Of a DNA stretch of 64,000 nucleotides, positions 2,602 to 35,488 are shown in pieces; within the stretch, counting starts at the first letter, position 1; every line of letters begins with the position of its first letter. The notes under the pieces are model-generated. The model saw nothing but the letters and a program-made list of their open reading frames with translations, did no database searches and was not told the origin of the DNA. The position numbers and the translations under genes were made by a program. The DNA comes from an uncultured Enterobacterales bacterium (GTDB lineage: Bacteria > Myxococcota_A > UBA796 > JAFGLY01), in assembly GCA_964454135.1 (NCBI GenBank), contig CAYVQL010000001.1, positions 84,977 through 148,976 of the forward strand, written 5' to 3'.

Positions 2602-3870
2602 CTAGATCTTGCAGAGCTCGCCCTGCAGCGCGTCCTGGATGGCGTCCTCGGCGGCCTGCTGCAGCTGCTCGTCCACCTCGACGGAGATGTCGCTGTCCAC
2701 GGCGTCCGCCAGCTCCTGGCAGGCGCGCTGCGCGGCGCGTCCGTCCAGCTCGGCGCACTGCGCCTCGATGGTCTCGCGCACAGCGTCGGCCGAGAGGCTC
2801 ACCTCGCCGATGGGCTCGGCCTCGACCTGGGCCTCGAACTCGCCGCACTCGCCGGTCATGCTGACGGTGACGGCGATGGAAACGCCGATGGGGTTGTCCA
2901 GCTCCAGGCTGACGGGCTCGAACCAGTCGGCGTCCTCGTCGCCCAGTTCGATGAATTCATCCAGGTCCACGGTCACGCGCTCCAGCAGGTACTCGGCGGT
3001 CGAGGCGGCATTGCCGGCGCTGGGGCAGGCGCAGTCCATGCCCAGGGGCCAGGTCAGGGGGTCGCCGTACTCGCCCTGTTCGTCCACGCCCAGCTCGTAG
3101 CTGGCGTCGGAGCTGCCGTAGGGCCCGCTCGTGGTCACGTCGCCCGTGCCCACCAGCTCGAGGGTCTCTTGGACGCTGTCCAGGCTGAGGATGCCCTCCA
3201 GGGTCAGGTCGCTGACGCGGTTGCCGTCGTCGCCGTGCACGCTGGCCTGGGGATCGCCGGCCTGACCCTGGGCGTCACTGGTGTACACAGAGAAGAGCGT
3301 CGTCTCCTCGTCGCGATCCTGGTACTGCAGCGCCACGTGGCCGGTGATGTCGGTCTCTCCCAGGACGAAGCTGTCTTGGAAGCCGAACACCAGCAGGCCG
3401 CTTTCCACGCGCTCCACCGTGACCTGGCCCTGAACGCCCTCGCACATGTCGAAGTCCAGCACCAGGGCGCTGCCTGGGCTGCGTTCGATACCCACGCAGT
3501 CCATGGCGGCGGGCGCAGGAGGCGCCAACAGGCCGGTCCCGGGGTGCAGGTCGTCGGGGATGGGTGCCAGATCGGCGCTGGTCTGCGCCATGGAGGCGTC
3601 CCAGAAGCGGTCATCCTCGTCCAGCAGCGCGCTCACCTCGGCGGGCTCGAGCACGGCCGACATGGAGGCGCCCAGGGCGTAGACGGCCTGGGTGGAGTCC
3701 AACTCCATCTCACGGCTGCTCTCGACGCTGGAGGCCGGGCCGCTCTCCAGCAGTGTGGCCATCAGCGGGTTGAGCGCGTCGCCGGTGTCGGTTGCTTCCT
3801 CGGAGTTCGCGCAAGCGCTGAGGCCGATGGCGGCGCTGAGGACTGCGAGCTGCGTGTGCGTGGCCTTCAT
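2602..3870 (-). CDS. Acidic lipoprotein, function unknown; possible distant paralogue of the 1671..2471 gene.
   Basis: Lipobox GLSAC, very acidic composition, 422 aa. It lies in tandem with the preceding lipoprotein gene on the same strand. Confidence 0.7.
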   Translation of the reverse strand: MKATHTQLAVLSAAIGLSACANSEEATDTGDALNPLMATLLESGPASSVESSREMELDSTQAVYALGASMSAVLEPAEVSALLDEDDRFWDASMAQTSADLAPIPDDLHPGTGLLAPPAPAAMDCVGIERSPGSALVLDFDMCEGVQGQVTVERVESGLLVFGFQDSFVLGETDITGHVALQYQDRDEETTLFSVYTSDAQGQAGDPQASVHGDDGNRVSDLTLEGILSLDSVQETLELVGTGDVTTSGPYGSSDASYELGVDEQGEYGDPLTWPLGMDCACPSAGNAASTAEYLLERVTVDLDEFIELGDEDADWFEPVSLELDNPIGVSIAVTVSMTGECGEFEAQVEAEPIGEVSLSADAVRETIEAQCAELDGRAAQRACQELADAVDSDISVEVDEQLQQAAEDAIQDALQGELCKI

Positions 3871-4265
3871 TTCATTCTCCTGCTGGCTGCTTCGGGGTTG
3901 GGGTCGCTGCCCGTTTCGCTCTGTGTTTCGCTGCGGGCCGCGTCTGTCTCCACAATAGCCCCGGGTCGGGGTGTGGTCATCAAAAAAAGTGGCTTGCTAA
4001 TTACCTTTTGCATAGCTTGCGAAAACCTTGAGGACCCTTGGCGGCTTGCTCGCGACCTATGGGGAAGCTCTAGGGCTCGAATGGGGGGGAAGCGGTATTG
4101 TCAAGCGATGAATCGCGCGATTTGCGCCTCTCTTCGGGCTTGCGTCGTTTCCTCCAGGTTTTCGCAAGCTTTGCCAAGAAGCACCCGACAGGGTGGTGAG
4201 CGCTTGCGTCGCGCCTTGGCGCAGCGCTACGCTCAAGGGGCCTCGCATCTCTTCGGAGGGAACCC

Positions 4266-4949
4266 GTGGCCAACATCCTGCTGATCGAAGATGACCTGGC
4301 CCTGGGCTCCCTGCTGCAGGCCGAGCTGCTGCGCGCGGGCTACCTCTGCGTCTGGAAGCAGAACGTCAGCGAGGGCCTGGCCGAGTTCCAGCGCCAGGAG
4401 CCCGACCTGCTGCTGCTGGACCTGATGCTGCCCGACGGCAGCGGTTTCCAGGTGCTCAAGCAGGTGCGTTCCCAGTCCCAGGTGCCGGTCATCATCCTGA
4501 CGGCGCGCAACCTGTCCGAGGACAAGGTGATGGGTCTGGACCTGGGGGCGGACGACTACGTCACCAAGCCCTTCTGGAACGACGAGCTCATAGCCCGCAT
4601 CCGAGCGCGGCTGCGGCGTCCCACCGCCGTGGCTGGGGAGGCCCAGAGCTTGACCATGGGGCGGGTGGAGGCGGACCTGGCGGCGCGCCGGGTGCTGGTG
4701 GATGGCGCGGAGAAGCGCCTGACGCCCACGGAGTTCAACATCCTGGAGTACCTGCTCAAGCGCCGCGGTCGCGCGGTGCGCCGCGAGCAGCTGCAGGCCG
4801 CCTTCCTCAAGGCCGAGGAATCGCCCGAGCAGTCGCTGCAGACCCATGTCTCGCGGTTGAGGCGCAAGCTGGGGCCCGACGGCAAGCTGATCCGCACGGT
4901 CTGGGGCATCGGCTACCGCATCGACGAGGAGGGGGAGAGCGGTGCTTAA
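4266..4949 (+). CDS. OmpR/PhoB-family response regulator (receiver plus winged-helix DNA-binding domain), GTG start.
   Basis: LLIEDD...LLLLDLMLPDGSG receiver motifs, conserved K in YVTKPF, and C-terminal RTVWGIGYRID wing. It overlaps the downstream kinase gene by 8 nt. Confidence 0.9.
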   Translation: MANILLIEDDLALGSLLQAELLRAGYLCVWKQNVSEGLAEFQRQEPDLLLLDLMLPDGSGFQVLKQVRSQSQVPVIILTARNLSEDKVMGLDLGADDYVTKPFWNDELIARIRARLRRPTAVAGEAQSLTMGRVEADLAARRVLVDGAEKRLTPTEFNILEYLLKRRGRAVRREQLQAAFLKAEESPEQSLQTHVSRLRRKLGPDGKLIRTVWGIGYRIDEEGESGA

Positions 4950-6324: not shown

Positions 6325-8136
6325 TCAGGAGCTCTCGGCGTTGAGCAGGCGCTGCTTGACCTGGGCGGCCATGCGCGCCGGGTCCGCCTCGTGGGTGGCG
6401 GTCCTTGCCAGGGCCTCCAGGATGGCGCGGGCGTTGCCCACGTTCTCGCTCGCGGCCAGCAGCCGTCGGAAGACCTGCAGGATGGTGACTCGCGGCAGGC
6501 GATCCAGGTCGCGGTAGACGGCGGGGCACTGGGCGCGCAGGGGATCCAGAGCCTGTTTCAGCTCTTCCAGGCCGTAGAGCTCGTGCCCCTGCTGGCGCAG
6601 CAGGCGGGCCAGGTGGGTGGCCAGCACGCCGGCTGGGTCCGTCACCTCGAAGCCCTGGGCCCGGGCCGCCAGCACGGCGGTAGCGGGGATCCACCAGGCA
6701 TGCTGGCCGAAGACCGGATCGCGGGCCTCTTCGCCCTGGGGAGGCTCGTGCTTGCAGCGGCCGGGCAGGGCAAGCCATCGATCGGATGGGATGCAGCCCG
6801 TTGCGCAGGGCTCGCCCCAGAGCAGCAGACGGTAGCAGTCGCCGGCCAGGTGCAGGTTGTCGCGCACGTGCAAGGGGGGCACCCGCAGGCCCCGCTCTCC
6901 GAGGATGCGGTCTCGCAGCGCGGCGACCCGTCCCAGCAGGGCGGCTTCCTTTTCCACCAGGCGCACCAGGTCCACGCCCAGCTCCATGGTCAGCGGCGGC
7001 ACCTCGGGCACGGTGGCCCGTTGCGGAGCTCGCTTCCTGGCGCGACCGCGCAGCGCTTGCTCCAGCTTGGAGCCGCTGGGGACGGTCACCGTGATGCCGG
7101 AGGAGCGCTGGCGGCTGCTGGGTGCGTGGGGGGCTGGCGGTGCGCTGGGATCCGGTACCAGGCCATCGGCGGTCAGCGTGCCCACGCGCTGCAGCTGGGC
7201 GTCGGGCAGCAGCTCGGCGGTGGAGAGAACGGTGATGTCGGGGTGGCAGCGGCGCACGGTGACGGCCAGCCGCCAGCGAGCCGGCGGGTCGCTGAGCAGC
7301 ACGGCCCGAGTCGGCAGCTCGGCCAGCGTCTCCAGTCCGTGGCAGATCCTTTCTCGTTCCTCCTCGCTCAGGGCCCCTCCGTCGGCCATGCGCAGGATGA
7401 TCGCCTTGGCTTCGTCGCTGAGCTCGGCGCAGTGAAGTACAGCCTTGTCGTCGCTGAAGCGGCTGGTGATGTGGCGGGCCAGCCCCTGCCGCACGCGCTC
7501 GGTGAGCGCCTCTTCGCTGGCTGGCCAGCCCATGAGCAGGGATTCCAGGATGGCCCGCGAGTTGCGGATGGTCAGCCCCTCGCGCAGCAGGTTGCGCAGC
7601 ACGGCCAGCAAGGTGGAGGGCGGCACGCCCTCGCGGTCCAGCTGGCGCACCAGCTCGGGCTCCCGGGCCGCGCAGCGGCGCAGCAGGTCTTCTACGTCGG
7701 CCAGGTCGTAGAGGTCGGGCAGCAGGGCCAGCTGCAGCTCGGTGCAGTGGGTCGTGAGCACGGTGGCCGGTTCGACCACGGTATAGCCCCTGGCTTGGGT
7801 GCTGAGGCGCTCCGACTCCGGGATCCACTGGGCCGGCAGGCCGAAGACCGGCTCCCTGATCACCTCACCTGTGATGGTTTCGTCGAGAGCGTCCGGATCG
7901 ATGGCCAGCCACATGTCCGCGCGCAGGCGGCCCCGACCCACCTCCATGCCCGCGATCAACAGGCGATAGCTGTCGTGGGGCAGGTGCGGGTCGCTGCGGA
8001 TGGCATTGCTGGGAAGCAGCACGCCCTCTCTGCGGGCGATGCTGCCGCGCATGCGCCGCAGCCTGTCCGCCAGGTCCTCCCCCTTCTCGAAGCTGGCCAG
8101 CAGGGCCTGTCCGAGCTCGATGTCGAGGGATTCCAC
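6325..8136 (-). CDS. Soluble protein made of two tandem FlhA/SctV (FHIPEP) C-terminal cytoplasmic domains, with no N-terminal membrane export-gate domain.
   Basis: Copy 1 (about aa 5-330) and copy 2 (about aa 405-603) each carry the FlhA-C signature blocks: V/IRDNLxL...YRLLIxG, FGLPAxWI, GYTVVEP...THxTEL, and VLRNLLREGLTIRNSRAILE / VFRRLLAASENVGNARAILE. The copies are joined by a Pro/Ser-rich linker. No hydrophobic segments. An AT-rich promoter lies upstream. Confidence 0.8.
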   Translation of the reverse strand: MESLDIELGQALLASFEKGEDLADRLRRMRGSIARREGVLLPSNAIRSDPHLPHDSYRLLIAGMEVGRGRLRADMWLAIDPDALDETITGEVIREPVFGLPAQWIPESERLSTQARGYTVVEPATVLTTHCTELQLALLPDLYDLADVEDLLRRCAAREPELVRQLDREGVPPSTLLAVLRNLLREGLTIRNSRAILESLLMGWPASEEALTERVRQGLARHITSRFSDDKAVLHCAELSDEAKAIILRMADGGALSEEERERICHGLETLAELPTRAVLLSDPPARWRLAVTVRRCHPDITVLSTAELLPDAQLQRVGTLTADGLVPDPSAPPAPHAPSSRQRSSGITVTVPSGSKLEQALRGRARKRAPQRATVPEVPPLTMELGVDLVRLVEKEAALLGRVAALRDRILGERGLRVPPLHVRDNLHLAGDCYRLLLWGEPCATGCIPSDRWLALPGRCKHEPPQGEEARDPVFGQHAWWIPATAVLAARAQGFEVTDPAGVLATHLARLLRQQGHELYGLEELKQALDPLRAQCPAVYRDLDRLPRVTILQVFRRLLAASENVGNARAILEALARTATHEADPARMAAQVKQRLLNAESS

Positions 8137-8364
8137 GGTGCTGCCCTCCTTGGAGGATGCCCGGTGGGGGTGCGCGGCGGATTGCAGGATTCCAGGCTAC
8201 CACCACTCGGTGGCCTTCGGGAGTCGGTGTCAATGAAAATGGTATCAAAAAAGGTAGAATCGTTGGATTTCCGTTGTCTTGAGCGGCCCATGGGAAAAAA
8301 AACCGGGGCGCGGGGAATGGATGCGAGCCTGTCCCGTACTGACGGGTGAAAGGAGCGTGGAACG
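8137..8364. promoter_or_regulatory. AT-rich divergent promoter region between the tandem-FlhA-C gene and the PLDc_N-like gene.
   Basis: Local GC drops sharply (caatgaaaatggtatcaaaaaaggtagaatcg, then an A8 run). No ORF. Confidence 0.5.
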
Positions 8365-8583
8365 ATGGAAACGCATCAAATTGCACTCATGGCCTGCGCT
8401 GGCGTCAGCGCCATCGCGGTTCTCTTCCTGCTGGTCAAGGCTGTACGCTGGACAGGCCGCGACGCCAGGAGGCGTGGCTTCCGCCCGGTCTGGCTGCTGC
8501 AGCTGCTGGTGGTGCTGGAGTTCCCCTGGCCCTGGCTGGTGTACTACCTGGTGACCCGCAACCTGGATCGGCAGCGGGCTTGA
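8365..8583 (+). CDS. Small two-TM membrane protein, PLD-nuclease N-terminal (PLDc_N)-like.
   Basis: 72 aa with two hydrophobic helices. The RPVWLLQLLVVLEFPWPWLVYYLVTRN segment resembles the PLDc_N consensus (KxLWLLVILLxPxIGPxLY). A promoter-like AT-rich region lies upstream. Confidence 0.5.
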   Translation: METHQIALMACAGVSAIAVLFLLVKAVRWTGRDARRRGFRPVWLLQLLVVLEFPWPWLVYYLVTRNLDRQRA

Positions 8584-8979
8584 GGGCCACTGGTTGGTTT
8601 CTTTTGGCCCCGACCAGATCAGCCGAGAGGGATGAGGACCAAAGGAGAGGATCTCTGCGCTCTCCGGTACGCCAGGACAAGCCTGGTGTCAGGCGGCGGC
8701 TCGCTGTTTCGGGAATTCGTTCCCTCGCAGTAGCGTTCCCCGCACTTGAGGTGGGGCCATTCGGGTGGAACCGGTCACAACTGCGCCAGTGGCGCCTCAC
8801 TGCCCGAGTTATGAGCGCCCCGCAGCGTTCACGCTCGCCGCAGGCTCTACGGCGGCACCAGCCGTGTACCCAGATCTGGGACTAGAGGTTTTTCTTCTCA
8901 TCCTGTAACAGTCCCCACCCCTGACGACTCTTGGGCGCTCAAGGGGCGGTTTCGTCCCCCAGCATCCAGGAAGTGCGCC

Positions 8980-12565: not shown

Positions 12566-12569
12566 GGGA

Positions 12570-15056
12570 TCAGGGCGAGCTCTGCTGGTACTGATCCCAG
12601 CCCCAGCACAGGATGCCGCCCACGCTGTCGATGCCGCAGTTGTGCTGGGCTCCGGCGCTCAGCTGCACGAAGCCATCCTTGGGGGGCGAGGCCTGGTCGT
12701 AGTGGTCGGCGCCCCAGCAGCGCACCCCGCCGGTGGTCTCCAGGCCGCAGGTGTGGGACTGGCCCGCGCTGACGTGGGAGTAGCTGCCGGACAGAGGCGT
12801 GGACTCGCCGTCGTCGTCGCTGCCCCAGCACTGCACGCCGCCTTTGCCGTCCACGGCGCAGCTGTGGTAGTGCCCGGCGCTGACCTGCACGAAGCTGCCA
12901 CCCGGCGGCGTGGACTCGCCGTAGCTGTCTCCGCCCCAGCAGTAGACGGTGCCGGAGCTGCCGATGGCGCAGCTGTTCCAGTCGCCGGCGCTGACCTGGG
13001 TGAAGCTCCCCTGGGGAGGCGTGGACTGACCCTGGTCGTCGGCGCCCCAGCAGCTGACGGCGCCCGTGTCGTCGACGGCGCAGCTGTGATCGTAGCCCGC
13101 GCTGACCTGGGTGAAGCTCCCCGAAGGAGGTGTGGACTGACCCGCGTCGTCGTTGCCCCAGCAGCGCAGGCTGCCGTTGACGGTCACGCCGCAGGTGTGG
13201 GCCTCGCCGGCGCTGATGTCTGTGAAGGCCTCGCTGGGCTCTTCGGTCTGGCCGTCGCTGTTGTCGCCCCAGCAGGCCACCCAGCCGTCGCTGTCGAGGC
13301 TGCAGGAATGACGGCCCCCGGCGCTGACGCTCTCCATGGTCGCGGGCAGGCCGGCGCAGCGGAAGCCGCGAGCGTTGCCGCGTCCCCAAGGATCGGCGTA
13401 GCAGCGGAACGAGACCCGCAGGGGATTCTCGTCGTTGCACCAGCTGCCCCCGCGGGTCACCCGGTACTCTTCGCCCTCGTCGGCGTAGGGGCTGGTGTCG
13501 GGACCGGTGGGGTCGGTGTTGGCGTCGTTTTCATTGGCCCACTGGTAGTAGTCGGGGTCGTAGTAGTCGGCGACCCACTCGTCGGCGTTGCCCGCCAGCT
13601 GGTAGAAGGCCCTGTCGGCGTCCCAGGCCGTCACGCCCTCCTCGAACTCGTCCACGTCCACCACCTCGCCGATCTCCTTGCCGTAGTTGGCGGGCGTGGG
13701 AGTGAGCGAGGCTGGCAGGTCGTCGCCCCAGGGATACTCGTAGTTGGGGCCGGTGGAGGGACCGCGCGCCGCGGCCTCCCACTGGGCCTCGGTGGGCAGC
13801 CAGCGGCTGGCCCAGCTGCAGTAGGCTTCGGCGTCGTACCAGGAGACGCCGGTGATGGGGCGGTCCTCGTGGCCGTGGTGCGGCGTGTAGATGCCGTCGG
13901 CGGCCTCCGCGATCTCCATCTGCGTCGAGTAGTAGCCAAGCGCACCGCCGGCGCTGCTGAGGAAGGCGGCGTAGGATGCCACGTCTACTTCGTACTGGTC
14001 GACGTCGAAGTCGCTGGTCAGGACTACCAGTCGCTGCGGCTCGCTCTCGGGCCAGGGCGTGCTGTCGGACTCGCGCCCCATGTAGTAGGAACCGGCCTCC
14101 AGCTCGATCAGCTTTCCGGCCACCACCCAGGTGCTCGTTGTGGAGGCGTAGGTGTCGTCCGAGACCTCGAGTGTCACCTGGTAGGCGCCCCGGGCCACGT
14201 AGTCGTGGGAGGTGGTTTTGTCCGTGCTGTACTCGGTCCAGCCGCTGCCGTCGCCGAAGTCCCAGCTGACCTCGAGCTCCTCCGTCGGGGTCTGCTGGTC
14301 GTAGCAGTCGATGGCCGAAAAAGAGAAGTTCTCACCCACCGGTCGGAAGCCGTGGGAGGCGGCGATGTCGCAGAGCGGGGCCTCGGTGTTGAGCGTGGTG
14401 CCGCTCACCACGTTGCTGCCGGTGCTGATGCCCCACTCGTCCTCGACGTAGACCCGGTAGTAATAGGTGGTGTTGGGGGTCAGGCCGGTGTCGGTGCGAT
14501 CCAGGACGTGCTGCTCGGCGGTGGTGTAGACCAGCGTGGCGGCCTGGTCCACATCTTCGCTCTCGGCCCGGTACAGGCGGTAGTAGGCGAAATCCGAGGC
14601 CTGGCTGGCCTGCCAGGACAAGGTCATCTCGGTGGCGGAGATGTCGGTGGGTTCTTCCAGGACCAGGCCCGCGGGGGCCGTGTCGTAGTCGGTGGTGGCG
14701 CTGACCTCGTTGGAGGGGGCGTTGTCTTCGACGCTGTTGAACACCCAGACACGGTAGAAGTACTGGTGGTAGGTCTGCAGGCCCTCGTCCGGGAAAGAGG
14801 TCTCGGTCCGATCGTAGAGCTCGGCCACCAGGGTGTCGTCCAGGGAGACATCCGCTTCTTCGGAGCGGTAGAGCTCGTAGCGGTCGAAGCTGCTGATGGA
14901 GCTCTCGAGCCAGGACAGGGAGATGGAGTCGAAGCCGATGTTGTAGGGGGGCCCCAGCAGCACGGGCTCGGCGGGCTCCACCTGCTCTTCGTCGTCCTTG
15001 CAGGCCATGGCCAGGGTGCAGAGGGATAAACAGAGGGGGAGGGTGAGTCTGGTCAT
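12570..15056 (-). CDS. Lipoprotein with two FN3 domains, a PKD domain, a formylglycine-generating-enzyme (FGE/SUMF1-type) domain and C-terminal RCC1-like repeats.
   Basis: Start set at the internal ATG giving the lipoprotein signal MTRLTLPLCLSLCTLAMAC. FGE block: GSYYMGRE...RVTRGGSW...GFRCAG. Seven or more repeats of SAGxxHxCxxxxxGxxxCWGxxxxGQ. The 537 nt in-frame extension upstream is Arg/Gly-rich and rejected. Confidence 0.8.
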   Translation of the reverse strand: MTRLTLPLCLSLCTLAMACKDDEEQVEPAEPVLLGPPYNIGFDSISLSWLESSISSFDRYELYRSEEADVSLDDTLVAELYDRTETSFPDEGLQTYHQYFYRVWVFNSVEDNAPSNEVSATTDYDTAPAGLVLEEPTDISATEMTLSWQASQASDFAYYRLYRAESEDVDQAATLVYTTAEQHVLDRTDTGLTPNTTYYYRVYVEDEWGISTGSNVVSGTTLNTEAPLCDIAASHGFRPVGENFSFSAIDCYDQQTPTEELEVSWDFGDGSGWTEYSTDKTTSHDYVARGAYQVTLEVSDDTYASTTSTWVVAGKLIELEAGSYYMGRESDSTPWPESEPQRLVVLTSDFDVDQYEVDVASYAAFLSSAGGALGYYSTQMEIAEAADGIYTPHHGHEDRPITGVSWYDAEAYCSWASRWLPTEAQWEAAARGPSTGPNYEYPWGDDLPASLTPTPANYGKEIGEVVDVDEFEEGVTAWDADRAFYQLAGNADEWVADYYDPDYYQWANENDANTDPTGPDTSPYADEGEEYRVTRGGSWCNDENPLRVSFRCYADPWGRGNARGFRCAGLPATMESVSAGGRHSCSLDSDGWVACWGDNSDGQTEEPSEAFTDISAGEAHTCGVTVNGSLRCWGNDDAGQSTPPSGSFTQVSAGYDHSCAVDDTGAVSCWGADDQGQSTPPQGSFTQVSAGDWNSCAIGSSGTVYCWGGDSYGESTPPGGSFVQVSAGHYHSCAVDGKGGVQCWGSDDDGESTPLSGSYSHVSAGQSHTCGLETTGGVRCWGADHYDQASPPKDGFVQLSAGAQHNCGIDSVGGILCWGWDQYQQSSP

Positions 15057-15127
15057 GGGCTCTGGTCCGCGGGAGGGCAGCTTGAGCTTAACATGGAGGG
15101 GACAGCGCATCGGGAGCCGGCCTGTGA

Positions 15128-20462: not shown

Positions 20463-20584
20463 GAGTGCCTCTTTTCGGGTTGCGATCCACAAGGACCACG
20501 GCCGAAGAAACGGGTTCGCCCGACCCTGTGAGGAGATTGTCAACCTATGTCACGTCGGCAGGCCTGCCTTCGTACGGGGTGTCT

Positions 20585-20624
20585 GGCAGCAGAAACATAG
20601 AACTCCGACAGGGTGTCAGGCACC
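20585..20624. repeat. Second copy of the intergenic module GGCAGcAGAAACaTAGAACTCC followed by GGGTGTCAGGCACC.
   Basis: A 22-mer matches 23044..23066 at 20 of 22 positions. GTGTCAGGCACC matches the arm end of the 27-bp inverted repeat. Both copies sit immediately upstream of minus-strand gene starts flanking the DUF3604 gene. Confidence 0.8.
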
Positions 20625-20647
20625 CGAATAGACAACCGAATTGCGCC

Positions 20648-22810
20648 CTACTCATCGAACCAGATCGGGCTGGACCAGGCCGTATTGCCGTCTCGTTGGC
20701 GCACTCGCAGGTAGCAGAGCTGCCCGGGTCGGGCCCGTTCATCGGTGACTGAAAAGCTGAGATCCATGGTGGCTGCGGGATGCTCTTCCCAGAGTACGGC
20801 GAATTCTCCGTCCGCCAGCTTGAGGATCTGTACGGCGTCCAGCAGGTCGGTGCCGTGCACGCGGCCCTCCAGCAGCACGGCGCGGGCGCCGTCCAGGGGC
20901 AGCGCGCCGCCCATGGGCGTTCCGCGGGCGCTGAAGCGCAGCAGCATGCGCGCGCCCGTGGTGGCGTAGGTGTGACGCCCTCTCATGCCTGTCCAGATCC
21001 CCTGGCGCGTCAGCTCGCGGGCGAGGACCGCGGCCAAGCCGGGCTTGTAGGCCTGGTCGATGTGACTGAGGTAGTGCATGTCGCTCGAGCCGACGAAGCC
21101 CATGCGCCAGCCGGCCTTCAGGGCGTCTTGGGCGAAGTTGCCGGAGTCGGAGGGGGCCTGGCGGATGTCGTAGCTCATCAGCTTCTTGACCAGCCCGCTC
21201 TCGGTAGGGGCCTCGGGGCGACCCTGGTCCACTGCGTACTCGTTGTCGTGGTACTCGCTGGCACCGTGGGCGCTGTAGATCTCCAGCAGGCCCTGCTGGG
21301 ACCAGTCCGCTGGACCCCAGTGGAAGGACACGTCTCCCGTGGGCCAAGCCGGCGAGTGGGGGATGACCAGGTAGTCGCGTCCTGCGAGAGTGGCCACGAG
21401 CTCGCTGGGATCCTGCTCGTCGGGCTTGCCCATGGCCGAGGGCAGGTTGTGATGCACCAGGGGGAGATCATCCTCGCCTGGGGCGTAGTAGATATTGCGG
21501 TGGCCGTAGAAGTAGCTGGTCCACTCGTAGCCCTTCAGGGACACGAACACGCCCGGCTCGTAGACCTCGTCGGCCAAGCGCTTGGTGTAGTCCCACTCGT
21601 CGGCGCTCAGGCCCATGGTGCCCGTCTTGGGGGCGAAGGGCACCGCACCGATCATGTCGTGGTCGGTGAGGACGGCGAAGTCGAAGCGTTCCTGGTGCCT
21701 ATGGCGCCACCACACGGTCTCGGGCGGCCGATCCGCGTCGATGGAGAGGATGGAGTGGCTGTGGGTGTCGCCGAAGTAGACGTGGGGCTGGTCCGGAGCC
21801 AGGATCGCGATGGGATTCGAACGGACCGCAAACTGCCGCCCGTCGATCTCGGCATGCCCCCTGATTCGGTAGACCCCCGGCTCGCCCCGTGCGGTGACCC
21901 GCAGCTCCGTCAGGCAGCCCTGCCAGCTCTCATGGTCGCCGGCCAGGGAGATCTCCGCGGGGAATTCCAGGGCCTGCAGGGGATCGAGAACGACCCGCCC
22001 GCGCGTGAAGCGCGCCAGGTTGGGCAGGAAGTAGTCATCCTCCACCCGTAGCAGCAATCGGGCCCCCTCTCCCGGTGCCAGGCTGGCCGGTGCCAGCAGC
22101 GTCACCTGTGCCGGCCATGCCGAGAAGGCGTCAAAGCTGGGCGCGTCCTCCAGCAGGGCGAACTCGCCATCTCCATCCGCGTCCAGCCGTGTCAGGATAC
22201 GCATGCTGGCCTCACGCGAAGGCGCCTCGAATCCCCCGTTCGCCCCCAGGGTGATGTGCAGGCTGTCCCCGGGTTGCAGCTCGCCTTTCTCCACGGTGAT
22301 GCGTAGCAGGCGTTCGTTGTCCTGCTGCCGCTGCAAGGCGTCCCGCGAGGCCTGGCCCAGCTCGCTGCGCTTGTACTTGATGTAGCGGAACAGGTCCTTC
22401 AGAGCGCCCAGGCGGCGCGGCTCCTCCACGCGCAGCTGCACATCCTCGCGGCTGGCCTCCACCTGCGCGTCTTGCAGCAGGTCGATGCCGAAGAACACGG
22501 CCGAGGGCGCCGAGATGGAGAAGGGCGTGTAGGTGCGCTGTGCGGTGGGCAGCACATGGCCCAGCCCGATCTTCAGCCCCCCGCCCTGGGCCACCCCTGC
22601 CTGGCCGGCCTCGAAGACCAGCTCGATGCGGTTGTCGGCCAAGACCGACTGACCGGCGATACGCCAGTCACCTGACAAGAGCTCCAGCGAGCCGATCTTG
22701 TCGGCAGGCAGCTTGGAGAAGAGGATGGGCTCGTCGTAGGGACGGAGGAAGACACAGCTCGGCAGCAGCAGTGCGGCGAGCGCAGGCAGGGTGAGATGGG
22801 AAGGGACCAT
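20648..22810 (-). CDS. DUF3604-family (PHP-like metal-dependent phosphoesterase fold) lipoprotein.
   Basis: Lipobox LLLPSC. Conserved YFGDTHSHS motif and the surrounding DUF3604-like blocks. Confidence 0.7.
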   Translation of the reverse strand: MVPSHLTLPALAALLLPSCVFLRPYDEPILFSKLPADKIGSLELLSGDWRIAGQSVLADNRIELVFEAGQAGVAQGGGLKIGLGHVLPTAQRTYTPFSISAPSAVFFGIDLLQDAQVEASREDVQLRVEEPRRLGALKDLFRYIKYKRSELGQASRDALQRQQDNERLLRITVEKGELQPGDSLHITLGANGGFEAPSREASMRILTRLDADGDGEFALLEDAPSFDAFSAWPAQVTLLAPASLAPGEGARLLLRVEDDYFLPNLARFTRGRVVLDPLQALEFPAEISLAGDHESWQGCLTELRVTARGEPGVYRIRGHAEIDGRQFAVRSNPIAILAPDQPHVYFGDTHSHSILSIDADRPPETVWWRHRHQERFDFAVLTDHDMIGAVPFAPKTGTMGLSADEWDYTKRLADEVYEPGVFVSLKGYEWTSYFYGHRNIYYAPGEDDLPLVHHNLPSAMGKPDEQDPSELVATLAGRDYLVIPHSPAWPTGDVSFHWGPADWSQQGLLEIYSAHGASEYHDNEYAVDQGRPEAPTESGLVKKLMSYDIRQAPSDSGNFAQDALKAGWRMGFVGSSDMHYLSHIDQAYKPGLAAVLARELTRQGIWTGMRGRHTYATTGARMLLRFSARGTPMGGALPLDGARAVLLEGRVHGTDLLDAVQILKLADGEFAVLWEEHPAATMDLSFSVTDERARPGQLCYLRVRQRDGNTAWSSPIWFDE

Positions 22811-22930
22811 GGCCCGAGTCTAACCGGCGTGCTTGTCAGGATAGGGTGTCATTGGGTGCAGCCGTCGTCGGCGTGCACATTGGGATCGCGGTCGTCGCAA
22901 TCCAGGCCCAGGGCCGCGTAGCTCGGAAAG

Positions 22931-22988
22931 GGTGTCAGGCACTAGGAATTGATACCTAATCAGGTATCAATTCCTAGTGCCTGACACC
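22931..22988. repeat. Perfect 27-bp inverted repeat (hairpin with 4-nt loop), AT-rich relative to the genome.
   Basis: GGTGTCAGGCACTAGGAATTGATACCT aatc AGGTATCAATTCCTAGTGCCTGACACC. Both arms are exact complements. Confidence 0.9.
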
Positions 22989-23066
22989 TGAACCCTGTAC
23001 TGAACTTGACACCTGAACCCCATAGTGCCTGGCACCCCAGTCCGGGCAGTAGAAACCTAGAACTCC
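22982..23066. repeat. Cluster of short direct repeats (TGACACCTGAACC twice; GTGCCTG[A/G]CACC variants) plus the GGCAGtAGAAACcTAGAACTCC motif.
   Basis: Read directly from the sequence. The last motif recurs at 20585..20606 with two mismatches. Confidence 0.8.
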
Positions 23067-24118
23067 TGGCACCCTACCGCAACCTGGGGCAGCAGCAGCG
23101 TCGTGTCGGCGGAGTGCAGCCAGGTCTCCCTCAGCCGGATGCTCACGAGGCTCTCGGGGATCGTCGCTGCCTGCTCTTCGGCTCGCTGCACGGCGAACAC
23201 CGTGCCTTGCAGGATCCAACCCACCTGGGTCGGGTTGGTGCCTGCCGGCTGCGCGAACAGGGGCTGGCGATCCGAGCAGGCCTGCCAGCGCGGCTCCGGC
23301 CGCGGTCCCGTGCGACGCGCGCCCAGGCCGCCCACGCCGTAGGCCAGACCGGGGTCCTCGCGGCTCGCTGCGAGCCACCCCAGCCAGACGGTGCCGGTGT
23401 AGTGGTCTCCGAGCACCACGCGCAGCCAGCCCTCGCGTTCTTCGAGCACCTCCACGTCCTGCGCCTCCAGGCCCGGCTGCACATGGCCCAGGATCTCGCC
23501 CGCGGGACTGGCCCGCAGCGGCAGCGCGTCGGGGACCCGGATCCAGGCCCTGCGGATCGGCTCCAGCCCGAGGGAGGCCAGGCGTGCGTCGCCGCCGTCA
23601 GGCGCGCCTGCGGGGCGGATGAGCGACAGCGCGTCGCAGGAGACCTGCTGGTCCACCGAGCCCACGGGCTGGAAGACTGTGAAGGCATGGCTCGACGGGC
23701 GTACGACCACGCGGTCCCTCTCGCCACCGACCACCCGCAGGTCGGCATCCAGGGCCATGAAGCCCACCTGGCCCAGCGCGATGCGCTTGGCAGCGTAGAG
23801 CACCTCGCGCTCGGTGGCCTCGACGTCGGCCCACACCAGCAGCCCGTCGCCCGCAACCACCACTTCGAGCCAGGCCGACCCCCGCCACACCAGATCGGCG
23901 TCCACCTGGGGCCAGCTCGACGCTCCGTAGCCAGTCTGCGCGAACACCGGTCCTCCGCCCGGCAGGCGGAGCTCCAGGGATCGCGGGTGCACCGGGGCGC
24001 TGAAGCGACACAGGAGAGATCCCGCTTTCGCGCGATCCTCCATGGTCGGGAGCGCTGCCTGGCGGACGCTGGCGCAGGCGATGCCCAGGATCGCGGACGC
24101 TGCCAGGATGCGGTGCAT
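23057..24118 (-). CDS. Secreted hypothetical protein.
   Basis: Internal ATG gives the signal peptide MHRILAASAILGIACASV. The competing overlapping frame is Pro/Arg-rich. Confidence 0.55.
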   Translation of the reverse strand: MHRILAASAILGIACASVRQAALPTMEDRAKAGSLLCRFSAPVHPRSLELRLPGGGPVFAQTGYGASSWPQVDADLVWRGSAWLEVVVAGDGLLVWADVEATEREVLYAAKRIALGQVGFMALDADLRVVGGERDRVVVRPSSHAFTVFQPVGSVDQQVSCDALSLIRPAGAPDGGDARLASLGLEPIRRAWIRVPDALPLRASPAGEILGHVQPGLEAQDVEVLEEREGWLRVVLGDHYTGTVWLGWLAASREDPGLAYGVGGLGARRTGPRPEPRWQACSDRQPLFAQPAGTNPTQVGWILQGTVFAVQRAEEQAATIPESLVSIRLRETWLHSADTTLLLPQVAVGCQEF

Positions 24119-24313
24119 GGTTGCTCCGGCGTTGGAGAATTCGCCCTGGTGCATAGGCCGCTCCCGAACCCCGGGCCAGCCCACCTCGGATGTCGACCCT
24201 CCCAGGCAGTGTTGGGCAAGCTTGCGGGGCGAGACCTGCTTGCATCGAGGTCACCCGAACGCACGGGTTTGCAGAATGTGGGGGAGGGGGGGCGCCTTTC
24301 TGCGTCCGGCTCG

Positions 24314-31624: not shown

Positions 31625-32821
31625 CTAGGCCCCCCGCTCGGCCTCCGTGGCCAGCTCGGCACGCATGCGTTGGTCCATGCTGAAGGCCAGCCCGGCCCCT
31701 ACGGGCAAGGGGGCCACCACCACGGCCTTGCAGCGCAGCCGCGCCCCCGAGGGAAGCTGGAACTCCACGTCGAGCCTCATGCGCGGCTGATCCAGGCCCC
31801 TGGCCTTGACGAAGAGACCCCCATTGCGCAGGTGGCTCTGGTAGTCCTTGACGAAGTTGCTCTGCCGGCCGTAGCGGATCACGATCCACGTGGCGCCGTC
31901 GCGCTTGTCCACGCTCACCAGGGGATCGAGCTGGCGCGTGCGGAGCCCGTTGCGCGAGGAGCTGGCTGCGCCGGGCTGCGCTCCCTGGGAGGCGGCGTCA
32001 GGCCCGGGTGCCGTCGGGGCGGGCGTGGGCGCGGCCCGGGGCGGCGCTGGCTGGGGAGGAGCGGTGGCGGCCCGGGGCGGCGCCGGCGTGGGAGGAGCCG
32101 GGGCGGCCTGGGGCGGCGCCGGCTCGACAGCGGAGGGCGCTGGCTGGGGAGGCGGGGGTGCTGGGGGCGATCGGCCCTCGATGGTGACCTTCGCGCCGGA
32201 TTCCGTCCAGGAGGCGGGTTTGCTGGGTGCCGCGGGTGCCCCCGACTGGGAGCTCAACCCCCGACCCAGGGCCGCCGAGATGGCGGAACGCACGCCGCTG
32301 TGAGCCGAGCCGCCGCTGCCACCCTCGGTGGACAGCCCGAAATCGCCGCCGATGCCCTTCTTCTTCTTCTTGAAGAGCTGCTCGCGACGGGCGCGGCGTT
32401 CGTTGATGCGCTCGATGGCCAGCTTGGTCTCGGCCTCGCTGGCCGTGCCCGCCTTGTCTGCGAACATGTCGCGGATGTATTTCTCCGGGTTGCGCTCTAC
32501 GCGCTGGGATGTGCCTCCCAGCTTCTGGTCTTCCATCCAGCCGCGCATGATCTCGAGGTCGGCCTCGGGCATGCTGCTGATGGAGCCTATGAAGGTCTGC
32601 ATGGCCTCGCCCCGGTAGGGCGTGACGGTGCGCACGGTCAGCATGCCCATGATGGTCTCTTCGTAGCCCTTCAGCTCCATGCGCCAGGCCATGGTCTCTC
32701 CGACCTGCAGAACGGAGGCGATCTGGAAGGTGATCTCCCGCTCGTTCATGTCGATGACGTAGCCGAAGGCCAGCCCGTGGGGAGACTGCAGCGCAAACAT
32801 GACGTTCAGGGGTTCGGCCAT
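31625..32821 (-). CDS. Protein with two PilZ-like domains (N- and C-terminal) separated by a Pro/Ala-rich linker.
   Basis: Both ends show a PilZ-like beta-barrel pattern. A lysine run and a PAPP-repeat linker sit between them. Strong RBS GGAGAGGA. Confidence 0.65.
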   Translation of the reverse strand: MAEPLNVMFALQSPHGLAFGYVIDMNEREITFQIASVLQVGETMAWRMELKGYEETIMGMLTVRTVTPYRGEAMQTFIGSISSMPEADLEIMRGWMEDQKLGGTSQRVERNPEKYIRDMFADKAGTASEAETKLAIERINERRARREQLFKKKKKGIGGDFGLSTEGGSGGSAHSGVRSAISAALGRGLSSQSGAPAAPSKPASWTESGAKVTIEGRSPPAPPPPQPAPSAVEPAPPQAAPAPPTPAPPRAATAPPQPAPPRAAPTPAPTAPGPDAASQGAQPGAASSSRNGLRTRQLDPLVSVDKRDGATWIVIRYGRQSNFVKDYQSHLRNGGLFVKARGLDQPRMRLDVEFQLPSGARLRCKAVVVAPLPVGAGLAFSMDQRMRAELATEAERGA

Positions 32822-32869
32822 GATCCTCTCCTGGACGCTATGATACCACCAACCGCTGCAGGGAGGAGA

Positions 32870-33958
32870 TCAACCCTGGCGCGCCTGGATGGCCATCAGC
32901 TCGTCATCGCGCGTTTGGGCCGAGATGGCCCGCTGGGCGTAGAGCTGTTGCAGGTGCTCGCGGTAGGTCACACCTGCTTCCGACTTGCTGGTGTAGATAT
33001 TGAGCTTGCCCAGCTCGCCGGCGCGCAGCACCGTGCGGATGGCCGTGGTGGGGAAGATCACCTCGGCGCCCAGCACGCGGCCGCCCCGAATGCCCGGCAG
33101 CAGGCGCTGTGTGATGATGGCCGAAAGCCCCGAGGCCAGCGAGTAGCGGATGCGCGCCTGGTGGTCGCTGTGGATCGAGCCGATGACCCGCGCCATGGTG
33201 GAGATGGTGTCGTCGGCGTGCATCGTGCTGATCACCAGGTGCCCCATCTCGGCGGCCTTCAGCACCTGCTCGATGGTCTCGGGATCGCGCATCTCCCCTA
33301 CGTAGACCACGTCCAGGTTCTCGCGCAGGGCGGCGCGCACGCCGCCGGAGAAGGAGTCCACGTGCATGCCCACCTCGCGCTGGATGAACATGCCCTTGTG
33401 ATCGTGGAAGATGTACTCGATGGGATCTTCCAGGGTGAGCAGGGTGGCCGGGCGCGTGCGGGCGATGTGGTCCAGCAGGGCCACGGCGGTGACGGTCTTG
33501 CCCTGGCCCGTGGCGCCGGAGATCAGCACCAGGCCGTGCTTGAGCGACATCAGCCGCGGCAGCAGCTTGGGCGGCAGACCCAGCTCCTCCAGGGGCATGA
33601 TGTCCTGGGCGATGCGGCGGATCACGGCGTAGATGCCGTTGTTGGCCATGCCCACGTGCACGCGGTAGCGATTGGTCGCCTCGGCGTGCACCAGGTCCAC
33701 CTCCCGCTTGACCCGGAAGCGGTCCAGATCGCTCTGAGTGAAGAAACAGGCCATGAAGTGGCGCAGGTGCTGGTCGGTCAGCGGGTCGGTCTTGATGCGG
33801 GTGATCTGGCCGTCGATCTTGAAGATCACCGGCTCGCCGACCTTGAGGTAGAAATCGGCGGCGTTGGCCTCTTCCATCCAGAGCAGGGTGTCGCGGACAC
33901 TGACCGTGCGTTCGGCCGAGCGGAGGAAGGGCTTTCTGTAGGCTTTCATGTTGGCCAT
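32870..33958 (-). CDS. PilT/PilU-family type IV pilus retraction-type ATPase paralogue.
   Basis: Walker A GATGQGKT, LTLEDPIEY, Walker B and Asp box VVYVGEMRD, His box HLVISTMHA. GGAGG RBS ahead of the ATG at 33958. The rest of the 1337-aa ORF is rejected. Confidence 0.85.
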   Translation of the reverse strand: MANMKAYRKPFLRSAERTVSVRDTLLWMEEANAADFYLKVGEPVIFKIDGQITRIKTDPLTDQHLRHFMACFFTQSDLDRFRVKREVDLVHAEATNRYRVHVGMANNGIYAVIRRIAQDIMPLEELGLPPKLLPRLMSLKHGLVLISGATGQGKTVTAVALLDHIARTRPATLLTLEDPIEYIFHDHKGMFIQREVGMHVDSFSGGVRAALRENLDVVYVGEMRDPETIEQVLKAAEMGHLVISTMHADDTISTMARVIGSIHSDHQARIRYSLASGLSAIITQRLLPGIRGGRVLGAEVIFPTTAIRTVLRAGELGKLNIYTSKSEAGVTYREHLQQLYAQRAISAQTRDDELMAIQARQG

Positions 33959-34054
33959 CTCACCCTCCGACGAATTGGCTGCGAAGCGATCTGCTATCAC
34001 GAAACGGGGTCCTGTCGCTCCGGTTATGGGGGCCGTCCTTCCCAGGGGTTGCCC

Positions 34055-35488
34055 ATGCCCGAGACCATTCTTCGTCGTTTTCGCCAGGTCGCGCCCACGG
34101 TCGATTATTGCGCGCTGCGGCTGGTGGAGGAGCAGGGCGAGGCCCTCACCGTGCGGCGCGATGTGCTGCAGCCTGTCCGCAGCGCACAAGAACGGGGCGC
34201 CATGATCACGGTCCACCACGGCGCAGGTGCTGGCTACGCGGCCACCAGCGATCTGAGCGTCGCCGGGCTGCGGCGGGCGGCGCAGCGGGCCGCCGAGTGG
34301 GCGCAACGCAGCGCAGCGCACTCGGTGATCGACTTCTCGGCCATTGAGATGCCGCGACCCGTGGGCTCGTACCAAGCAAGCGAGGAGCAGCCCTGGTCGG
34401 ACCAGCCCCTGGCCGAGCGCGTGGCCATGTTGCTGCAGCGCAGCCGCAGCCTGCGCATCGACGAACGCATCGTGGACTGGTCGGTCTCGCTCTGGCGCGT
34501 GCGCCACGAGACCCTCTTCGCCACGGCCGATGGCGGACTGGCCCAGCAGGGCTTGAACCTGGTCACGCCGGAGATCCGGGCCGTGGCCAGCGCCGGCGGC
34601 GACGTGCAGAAGCGCACGCTGGGGGGCTCGGGCATCTCGCAGCAGGGCGGGCTGGAGGTGCTGGACCGCGTGGGCTTCCATCGGGCTGGGCCCGAGCTGG
34701 CCCAGCAGGCTCTGGAGCTGCTCTCGGCGCCCGATTGCCCCTCGGGCACCATGGACCTGTTGCTGGCCCCGGACCAGATGATGCTGCAGGTGCACGAGTC
34801 CATCGGCCACCCCCTGGAGCTGGATCGCATCCTGGGCGACGAGCGCTCCTACGCCGGCACCAGCTTCGTCAGCCTGGACATGTTCGGCAGCTACCGCTAC
34901 GGCAGCCGGCTGCTGAACATCACCTTCGATCCTGGCGACCCCCACGAATTTGCCAGCTACGCCTTCGACGACGAGGGCAGCCAGGCGCGGCGGGTGCACA
35001 TCATCCGCGACGGCCTGCTGGAGCGCCCCCTGGGCGGCGTCATCAGCCAGGCCAGGGCCGGCCTGCCCGGCACGGCCAACAGCCGAGCCCAGAGCTGGTA
35101 TCGCCCACCCATCGACCGCATGGCCAACCTGAACCTGGAGCCGGGCGATTCCAGCTTCCAGCAGCTGGTCTCGCAGGTGGAGCGCGGCGTCTTCATGCGC
35201 ACCAACGCCTCCTGGTCCATCGACGACTCGCGCAACAAGTTCCAGTTCGGCTGCCAGCGGGCGCGCCTGATCCGCGACGGCCAGCTGGGCCAGGTCGTGA
35301 AGAATCCCAACTACCGCGGCATCTCCGCCACCTTCTGGCGCAACCTGAAGGGCGTGGGCGACCGCAGCACCTACGAAGCCCACGGCACGCCCTGGTGCGG
35401 CAAGGGCGAGCCCAACCAGATCATTCGCGTGGGGCACGCCGCGCCGGTGGCGCTCTTCGGCGCTGTCGATGTCTTCGGGGGGGCCTGA
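34055..35488 (+). CDS. tldD: TldD-family metalloprotease.
   Basis: HESIGHPLELD zinc motif and overall TldD/PmbA fold signature. Start at the ATG at 34055. Confidence 0.85.
   Translation: MPETILRRFRQVAPTVDYCALRLVEEQGEALTVRRDVLQPVRSAQERGAMITVHHGAGAGYAATSDLSVAGLRRAAQRAAEWAQRSAAHSVIDFSAIEMPRPVGSYQASEEQPWSDQPLAERVAMLLQRSRSLRIDERIVDWSVSLWRVRHETLFATADGGLAQQGLNLVTPEIRAVASAGGDVQKRTLGGSGISQQGGLEVLDRVGFHRAGPELAQQALELLSAPDCPSGTMDLLLAPDQMMLQVHESIGHPLELDRILGDERSYAGTSFVSLDMFGSYRYGSRLLNITFDPGDPHEFASYAFDDEGSQARRVHIIRDGLLERPLGGVISQARAGLPGTANSRAQSWYRPPIDRMANLNLEPGDSSFQQLVSQVERGVFMRTNASWSIDDSRNKFQFGCQRARLIRDGQLGQVVKNPNYRGISATFWRNLKGVGDRSTYEAHGTPWCGKGEPNQIIRVGHAAPVALFGAVDVFGGA

Follow-up and report, generated by a model that had tools for sequence, protein, structure and literature searches.

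What is a perfect 27-bp palindrome doing in the gap between two bacterial genes, 120 nt ahead of the start codon of a DUF3604 gene? An earlier note on this DNA had drawn attention to the palindrome and offered four options for it, namely a site for a dimeric regulator, a cruciform, a Rho-independent-like attenuator, or the terminal structure of a small non-autonomous mobile element. Here, we propose that it is probably one copy of a low-copy, dispersed family of 56-60-nt hairpins, a non-autonomous palindromic repeat of a REPIN/MITE-like kind, and of the four options the last fits best. The element is dispersed, constrained to form a hairpin and insertion-like, and it has no tie to DUF3604. The palindrome is therefore repeat DNA of a selfish or structural nature, not a DUF3604-specific switch: it is one copy among hairpins that lie between unrelated genes in several uncultured high-GC bacteria.

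The palindrome and its assemblies

In the window (the whole 64-kb stretch of DNA analysed here), positions 22931-22988 read GGTGTCAGGCACTAGGAATTGATACCT / AATC / AGGTATCAATTCCTAGTGCCTGACACC. The left arm (22931-22957) consists of an outer 20 nt, GGTGTCAGGCACTAGGAATT, which is family-wide, and an inner 7 nt, GATACCT, found at the window locus only; the right arm (22962-22988) is its exact reverse complement. A repeat search returned the two 27-nt arms as 100% complementary (27/27) around a 4-nt spacer, just as the earlier note had quoted the stem and its centre. This centre (22958-22961, AATC on the plus strand) is non-palindromic and stands in one orientation in all the assemblies that reach it. 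Within the window the 27-mer occurs as these two arms only, even at 3 mismatches, and 100 shuffles gave 0 matches with 3 mismatches permitted. The runner-up among the perfect short-range inverted repeats of the window has 14-nt arms, and by our own estimate a perfect 27-bp inverted repeat with a short spacer would be expected by chance about 1e-10 times in 64 kb. The predicted energy of the hairpin is -50.7 kcal/mol as RNA and -33 kcal/mol as DNA (z = -10.5 against shuffles), and extrusion as a cruciform or hairpin is physically plausible. The description of an AT-rich centre in DNA of about 70% GC also holds, with the central 30 nt at about 37% GC, and the arm, read from the sequence, has stop codons in 3/3 frames on both strands.

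The hairpin is crossed by ENA contigs L004/L035 and L034 and by JGI contig L036, in which 270 nt are identical to the window, and four independent assemblies carry an identical hairpin sequence. Ten contigs of the same population (L005-L007, L029-L031 and L037-L040, from JGI, Logan and ENA) terminate inside the hairpin or at its edge, and contig L041 terminates before it, 23 nt past the stop codon of the upstream gene; breaks within the hairpin are what a strong palindrome causes in short-read assemblies. The population is that of the Cariaco Basin samples SAMN10231894, SAMN10231913 and SAMN10231914. In L034 (ENA ERZ23498668, sample SAMN10231894), the DUF3604 gene at 2845-4098 is called in two pieces, of 370 aa and 335 aa, a split that may reflect a frameshift, a pseudogene variant or an assembly error in that sample.

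Neighbouring genes and flanking repeats at the window locus

Both genes that flank the gap lie on the minus strand, and the gap itself, from the stop of one to the start of the other, is the 246 nt (22811-23056) reported before. The DUF3604 gene (20648-22810), which encodes a CehA-McbA-like metallohydrolase, has its ATG at 22810, downstream of the hairpin. The upstream gene (23057-24184; 365-375 aa, with a weak SH3_3 match) has its stop 68 nt before the hairpin. Its final 10 codons lie outside the stretch that aligns to an orthologue of 59% identity (the orthologue has its own 17 extra residues), and its final six codons and stop come from arm-like sequence: in the protein tail PQVAVGCQEF* (23057-23086) the reading frame enters arm-derived sequence, and the stop is the arm's CTAG.

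The palindrome is surrounded by partial copies of itself that the earlier note does not contain. On the left, GGATAGGGTGTCA at 22839-22851 is a partial copy of the left junction, GGAAAGGGTGTCA at 22925-22937, and consists of filler plus the first 7 nt of the arm. On the right, a stutter at 22982-23020 carries TGACACCTGAACCC twice (22982-22995 and 23007-23020), each made of the last 7 nt of the arm plus filler, and is followed by a partial right-arm copy, ATAGTGCCTGGCACCC (23022-23037), an inverted repeat of 22930-22944 that agrees at 14/15 outer-arm positions. Further right, at 23045-23074, a 22-nt motif, GGCAGTAGAAACCTAGAACTCC, is followed by arm-like CCTGGCACC, and this piece covers the last codons of the upstream gene together with its TAG stop (23057-23059). 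All of these copies are given as they read on the plus strand. The stutter of the window's flanks is weak, being below the TRF threshold. The whole 270-nt spacer has a predicted fold of -138.7 kcal/mol (z = -8), in which the partial arm copies of the two sides pair mutually.

A relic lies on the other side of the DUF3604 gene, and it too is absent from the earlier note. The 22-nt motif at 23045-23066 recurs directly at 20585-20606 (20/22; GGCAGYAGAAACMTAGAACTCC), and 20610-20623 matches the arm at 22929-22942 in 14/14 positions. Together these belong to a decayed relative at 20570-20632 on the plus strand, which reads GGTGTCTGGCAG, then CAGAAACATAGAACTCC, then GGTGTCAGGCACCC and contains two arm-like pieces in direct orientation and no hairpin; the match of covariance model R1 to it is weak (18 bits, E 0.04).

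As for signals of transcription, the tails of the stem read CTTTCC and TGAACC, with a T-tract on neither strand, a scan of 22600-23300 gave no terminator-like site, and a promoter scan found no sigma-70-like promoter in the gap. The suggestion of a Rho-independent-like attenuator thus falls for want of a T-tract on both strands.

Elsewhere in the window, the 843 nt of 8137-8979 lack a high-GC3 ORF and have the window's lowest GC (0.63); within them GGTGTCAATGAAAATGGTATCAAAAAAGG, at 8226-8254, is AT-rich, and a short ORF begins near 8366. A GC3-based gene map likewise places no typical high-GC3 ORF in 12566-15127 (2.6 kb) or 32304-34233 (1.9 kb).

A family of hairpins in other genomes

Is the palindrome unique to this locus? 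An exact scan with the outer 20 nt of the arm against one genome per species returned 3 contigs from two other MAGs, and an 18-mer scan of JGI metagenomes returned 13 contigs, about 8 of them clear relatives. The outer 20-bp stem builds 56-60-nt hairpins at about 9 other, non-homologous intergenic sites, on contigs of 0.60-0.74 GC. Stems in the family reach 28 bp; the inner stem, 6-8 bp long, is AT-rich and variable and encloses a loop of 3-5 nt. The inner stem is AAGCTTTT in L001 and L002 (loops CCA and CTG, respectively), CACATTTT in L015 (loop TTGG) and (GGAAAT)AAGATT in L016 (loop TCAGG). These four loci and the window have perfectly complementary arms. In five copies (L003a, L003b, L012, L017 and L018) the inner stem has decayed, and in L019 one arm is mostly lost. 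Single-arm matches at L008, L010, L011 and L013 look like chance. The one in L010 (1100-1200), a contig of 48% GC, lies upstream of a short Cro/YdaS-like gene (MNILEIALASAGGVGRLAYILDLKQNVISNWRKRG...), in a surrounding, CTAGGGAAAGTACCTAG, that is dyad-like itself.

The stem, rather than any one sequence, is what the family keeps. Over an alignment of 10 sequences, pairing holds in 91% of cells; sliding the partners by 1-3 columns lowers this to 30-46%. Changes on both sides of the stem account for 6 pairs (11 cells), a figure equalled by 2/500 shuffles. Copies are near-identical inside one genome, and the differences between genomes are compensated: L001 and L002, which belong to the same MAG (CAZVHW01), have identical 28-bp stems and different loops and flanks. 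Conservation of the outer stem is in part a matter of ascertainment, because an 18-20-mer of the arm was the search key; with an exact-arm key, more diverged members would be missed. A sub-family with a G.T mismatch (right arm GTGTCTGACACC) comprises L003a, L003b, L012 and L017, and the partial copies in the right array of L012 carry the GTGTCTGACACC variant as well. To judge from these sequences, the conserved G.T asymmetry points to descent from an asymmetric master copy and not to symmetrisation in situ.

The copy number per genome looks low: the 64-kb window has 1 full copy and MAG CAZVHW01 at least 2, and covariance model R1 found no further full copies in the 269 kb searched. At least one host is Myxococcota-like by its protein matches, as the named proteins most similar to the PBP1C of the L003 genome (CAZITQ01) are from Myxococcota (57-61% identity). 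For the window's proteins, NCBIfam returned no families confined to one lineage. The records of L001/L002 (CAZVHW01) and L003 (CAZITQ01) are titled "uncultured Enterobacterales" and "uncultured Rickettsiales", yet have 67-69% GC, and these labels look wrong.

The family appears to be undescribed as far as we have checked, and we regard it as a small palindromic repeat family of uncultured marine high-GC bacteria. Searching open-access papers and preprints for the stem sequence gave unrelated primers only, and a keyword search gave general REP/MITE papers only; no plasmid or phage record matched the stem.

Gene contexts and the filled site

The copies sit between unrelated genes. Gene contexts at the foreign loci were read from ORF lists and Pfam, and six loci, the window included, are readable. 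In the window the hairpin lies between the SH3-like gene and DUF3604. In L002 it follows an FG-GAP gene by 115 nt from the stop and precedes a transglutaminase-like gene, and in L016 it lies 20 nt from the stop of an unnamed gene, with the next start codon 52 nt on. In L015 the stop of an LPG-synthase-like gene falls inside the arm, so that gene and hairpin overlap, and MalQ follows. In L003, two hairpins lie after an alpha-2-macroglobulin (A2M) gene, 199 nt from its stop, and pbpC follows. In all of these the two genes are on the same strand, whereas L001, with an AlgX-like gene 157 nt before the hairpin and an unnamed gene after it, is probably convergent. Hence the hairpin stands 20-200 nt after a stop codon in 6/6 readable loci (with the stop inside the arm in L015), the gene pair is on the same strand in 5/6, and no gene family is common to the six.

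The LPG-synthase-like ORF of L015 crosses an array and stops at the arm's CTAG (...GVRH*; 6896-6940, tail ...GVTSAGVSVGVRH). The evidence for insertion comes from L003, in which 466 nt (3922-4387) separate the A2M stop (the motif ...WEDFLL is kept) from the likely pbpC start; a C10/A9 homopolymer run, the two hairpins and partial-arm arrays make up nearly all of this spacer. As a gene pair, a2m-pbpC is conserved, and its gap is 9-16 nt in L042 and L043, the nearest relatives fetched, with PBP1C only about 61% identical.

Around DUF3604 itself the comparison is looser. No hairpin copy was found in about 80 kb around four DUF3604 orthologues (70-77% identity), but these orthologues, which lie in three different gene contexts, are non-syntenic with the window; the orthologous-locus comparison that had been proposed thus gives the absence of a copy there, and no empty site as such. 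For the upstream gene the sole homologue, at 59% identity, overlaps the gene that follows it, which leaves no spacer to compare. The check for dispersed copies, which had been put forward as a way to tell a generic repeat from a local regulator, came out in kind on the side of the repeat, with hairpins beside unrelated genes in other genomes.

Stutter arrays in the flanks

The element's one unusual feature is its stutter arrays. At most hairpins the left flank is a tandem array of units made of a short local filler and the left arm's first k nt, and the right flank is the mirror image of this. The filler differs from place to place: on the left it is GATC in L001, ACTAG(G) in L002, ACATC in L018 and CTGG in L012, and on the right CCGTC in L002 and CTGCC in L012. 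TRF scores flank units that contain the outer arm as genuine tandem repeats. In a junction-anchored parse, k clusters at 6-8 and at 14-16, with a few values at 21-26, and each unit copies 3-9 nt (in one case 17 nt) from the sequence directly next to the full hairpin. Microhomology at the unit boundaries is clear in L002, where ACTAG is in both arm and filler, and not in L001 or L018. The left flank of L002 also contains AACTAGAACTAG directly before its arm copies; as this resembles GGCAGYAGAAACMTAGAACTCC of the window, the "filler" may include a second motif of the family.

Comparison with known systems

The element resembles a REPIN or a very small MITE most, and is a member of neither as defined. 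REPINs are doublets of REPs in inverted orientation that RAYT transposases mobilise (Bertels & Rainey, PMC3116915, PMC3337134); a REP is an imperfect palindrome of 20-40 nt headed by a conserved GTAG-type tetranucleotide, and a genome with a REP/REPIN-RAYT system carries tens to hundreds of copies, with REPs on both sides of the cognate RAYT (Y1 transposase) gene. As in REPINs, conserved arms in inverted orientation build one long hairpin, which is extragenic, similar within a genome and without coding capacity, and its stems of 26-28 bp are kept by paired change. In contrast to REPINs, the arm GGTGTCAGGCACTAGGAATT has no GTAG and no notable internal hairpin (a single arm does not form a small palindrome of its own), no more than 3-5 nt separate the arms, the copy density appears far lower, no RAYT gene was seen, and arrays of truncated arm plus filler have no place in the REPIN description.

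A review (PMC3184786) covers the MITEs of bacteria, among them Correia/CREE, ERIC and RUP. The hairpin shares with MITEs its terminal inverted repeats of about 20-27 bp, an AT-richer interior and an intergenic position, and MITEs can likewise be co-transcribed and fold as RNA hairpins. At 56-60 nt, however, it is at or below the lower size limit, and no target-site duplication abuts the inverted repeats: the flanks read AAAG|..|TGAA in the window, GATC|..|TCCG in L001, AAC|..|CAC in L015 and GTA|..|TCC in L016. No parent insertion sequence with these ends was found among the plasmid and phage collections, and no transposase, RAYT or recombinase gene adjoins the copies among the flanking genes examined.

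Integron attC sites share the length, the position after a stop codon between same-strand genes, and a structure conserved over sequence, but the ends here are GGTGTCA ... TGACACC, with no R''/R' core sites (RYYYAAC ... GTTRRRY) and no extrahelical bases, and there is no cassette array in the window and no intI among the genes examined. The intercistronic REP/BIME elements that stabilise mRNA in E. coli, where a stable stem-loop lies between genes of one transcription unit, are a likely functional analogy at the window locus; they are a different sequence family, and the function here would be the same by analogy only. The absence of a T-tract separates the hairpin from an intrinsic terminator. 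Rfam gave no match at the gathering threshold and, below it, generic miRNA-precursor hairpin models only. A protelomerase or hairpin-telomere site has a central dyad, and none of the centres AATC, CC(A), CTG, TTGG and TCAGG is self-complementary.

Several narrower candidates were tried and set aside. A sigma-54 (-24/-12) reading of TGGCAC fails on both spacing and GC dinucleotide, and its motifs are on the non-coding strand. The half-site GTGTC-N8-GACAC, which we take to be of the MrpC type, has the wrong spacing. Comparison with the GGGG ends of Tn3-type elements gave an identity of only about 50% and no 5-bp duplication. A junction of abutted IS21-like ends is at odds with flanks that are ordinary chromosomal genes, and a retron msd with the lack of a reverse transcriptase gene and with the presence of the element at multiple loci.

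Alternative readings

What else might the hairpin be? One option is an RNA element selected by the host in many operons and not mobile: a stem-loop between cistrons that would terminate or stabilise the message of the upstream gene and reduce read-through into the next. A role of this sort is known for REP elements in E. coli operons, and the position shortly after stop codons and mostly between same-strand genes, the compensatory changes that preserve the stem and the high predicted RNA stability are all what such an element would show. We nevertheless consider it unlikely. Besides the missing T-tract, an identical 20-nt stem beside unrelated genes in different genomes is unexpected of independently evolved terminators; the G.T pair of L003 is on the strand opposite the mRNA, so that the message itself would have an A.C mismatch at this pair; no role at the RNA level is obvious for the stutter arrays; and in L003 the element occupies an operon junction that elsewhere measures 9-16 nt.

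A second option, which we rate as rather improbable, takes the hairpin and its one-sided arrays together as the footprint of an undescribed hairpin-recognising enzyme (a nickase, a primase-polymerase or a recombinase), with the arm repeats bracketing a movable DUF3604 unit. Copying would then begin again and again from the foot of the stem and break off at set distances of about 7 and about 15 nt.

A third and still more doubtful option is an attC-like site at which an unknown site-specific system would recombine folded single strands, with the DUF3604 gene as its present or past movable unit. The size of 56-60 nt is that of the classic "59-base element", and the placement just after stop codons and the conserved structure under variable sequence agree with it, as do the signs around DUF3604: the intergenic regions on its two sides share the 20/22 direct repeat and the 14/14 arm match, the R1 model has its weak match at 20570-20632, and orthologues occur in three gene contexts. 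Against this, the core sites are missing, the perfect copies lack extrahelical bases, the 64-kb window has one full copy and no array, the genes examined include no integrase, and the loss of synteny at 70-77% identity is unremarkable.

An operator confined to this locus, through which a dimeric regulator would control the DUF3604 gene, is the reading that the earlier note had suggested first; we find it hardly credible. A perfect dyad 120 nt upstream of a start codon invites this reading, but 58 bp is far above known operator lengths, the gap has no sigma-70-like promoter for it to overlap, the DUF3604 orthologues are without the site, and the same arms lie in other genomes beside AlgX-like, FG-GAP/transglutaminase, MalQ/LPG-synthase and A2M/PBP1C genes. 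Finally, a one-off palindrome made by local template switching, or a sequencing or assembly artefact, is refuted because the hairpin family exists: most short-read assemblies do break at this point, but four independent ones agree base for base, the same arms occur with different inner stems at other loci and in other studies, and no plasmid or phage record matches.

How the repeat might spread and act

If the hairpin is, as we favour, a dispersed palindromic repeat, how might it be maintained? The unit that is recognised and kept would be the folded single strand, either DNA or RNA after read-through, comparable to REPINs, the ends of IS200/IS605 elements and attC sites. The arrays are most simply explained if DNA synthesis repeatedly entered the base of the hairpin, stalled and re-copied the junction, and later slippage between the new repeats would have expanded them. 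This step for the arrays is the weakest of the proposal, because microhomology is not evident in L001 and L018.

Locally, transcripts that run on from the SH3-like gene towards DUF3604 would by default contain a very stable stem-loop. On the model of intercistronic REPs, this structure may act as a barrier at the 3' end, a processing site or a partial insulator, and might protect or define the upstream 3' end and damp read-through. The presence of hairpins inside the a2m-pbpC unit suggests that the element is not a complete terminator.

Implications

In addition to adding a family to the known small palindromic repeats, these findings have a practical side, as such elements probably fragment MAGs of these lineages, with most short-read assemblies breaking there. 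The element is ordinary in kind, and it is the signature in its flanks that merits a closer look. Together, the paired changes and this flank signature could report how long perfect palindromes are copied or repaired in vivo. For the locus itself, the idea of a dedicated DUF3604 operator is removed, and in its place stands that of a very stable stem-loop separating two co-oriented genes.
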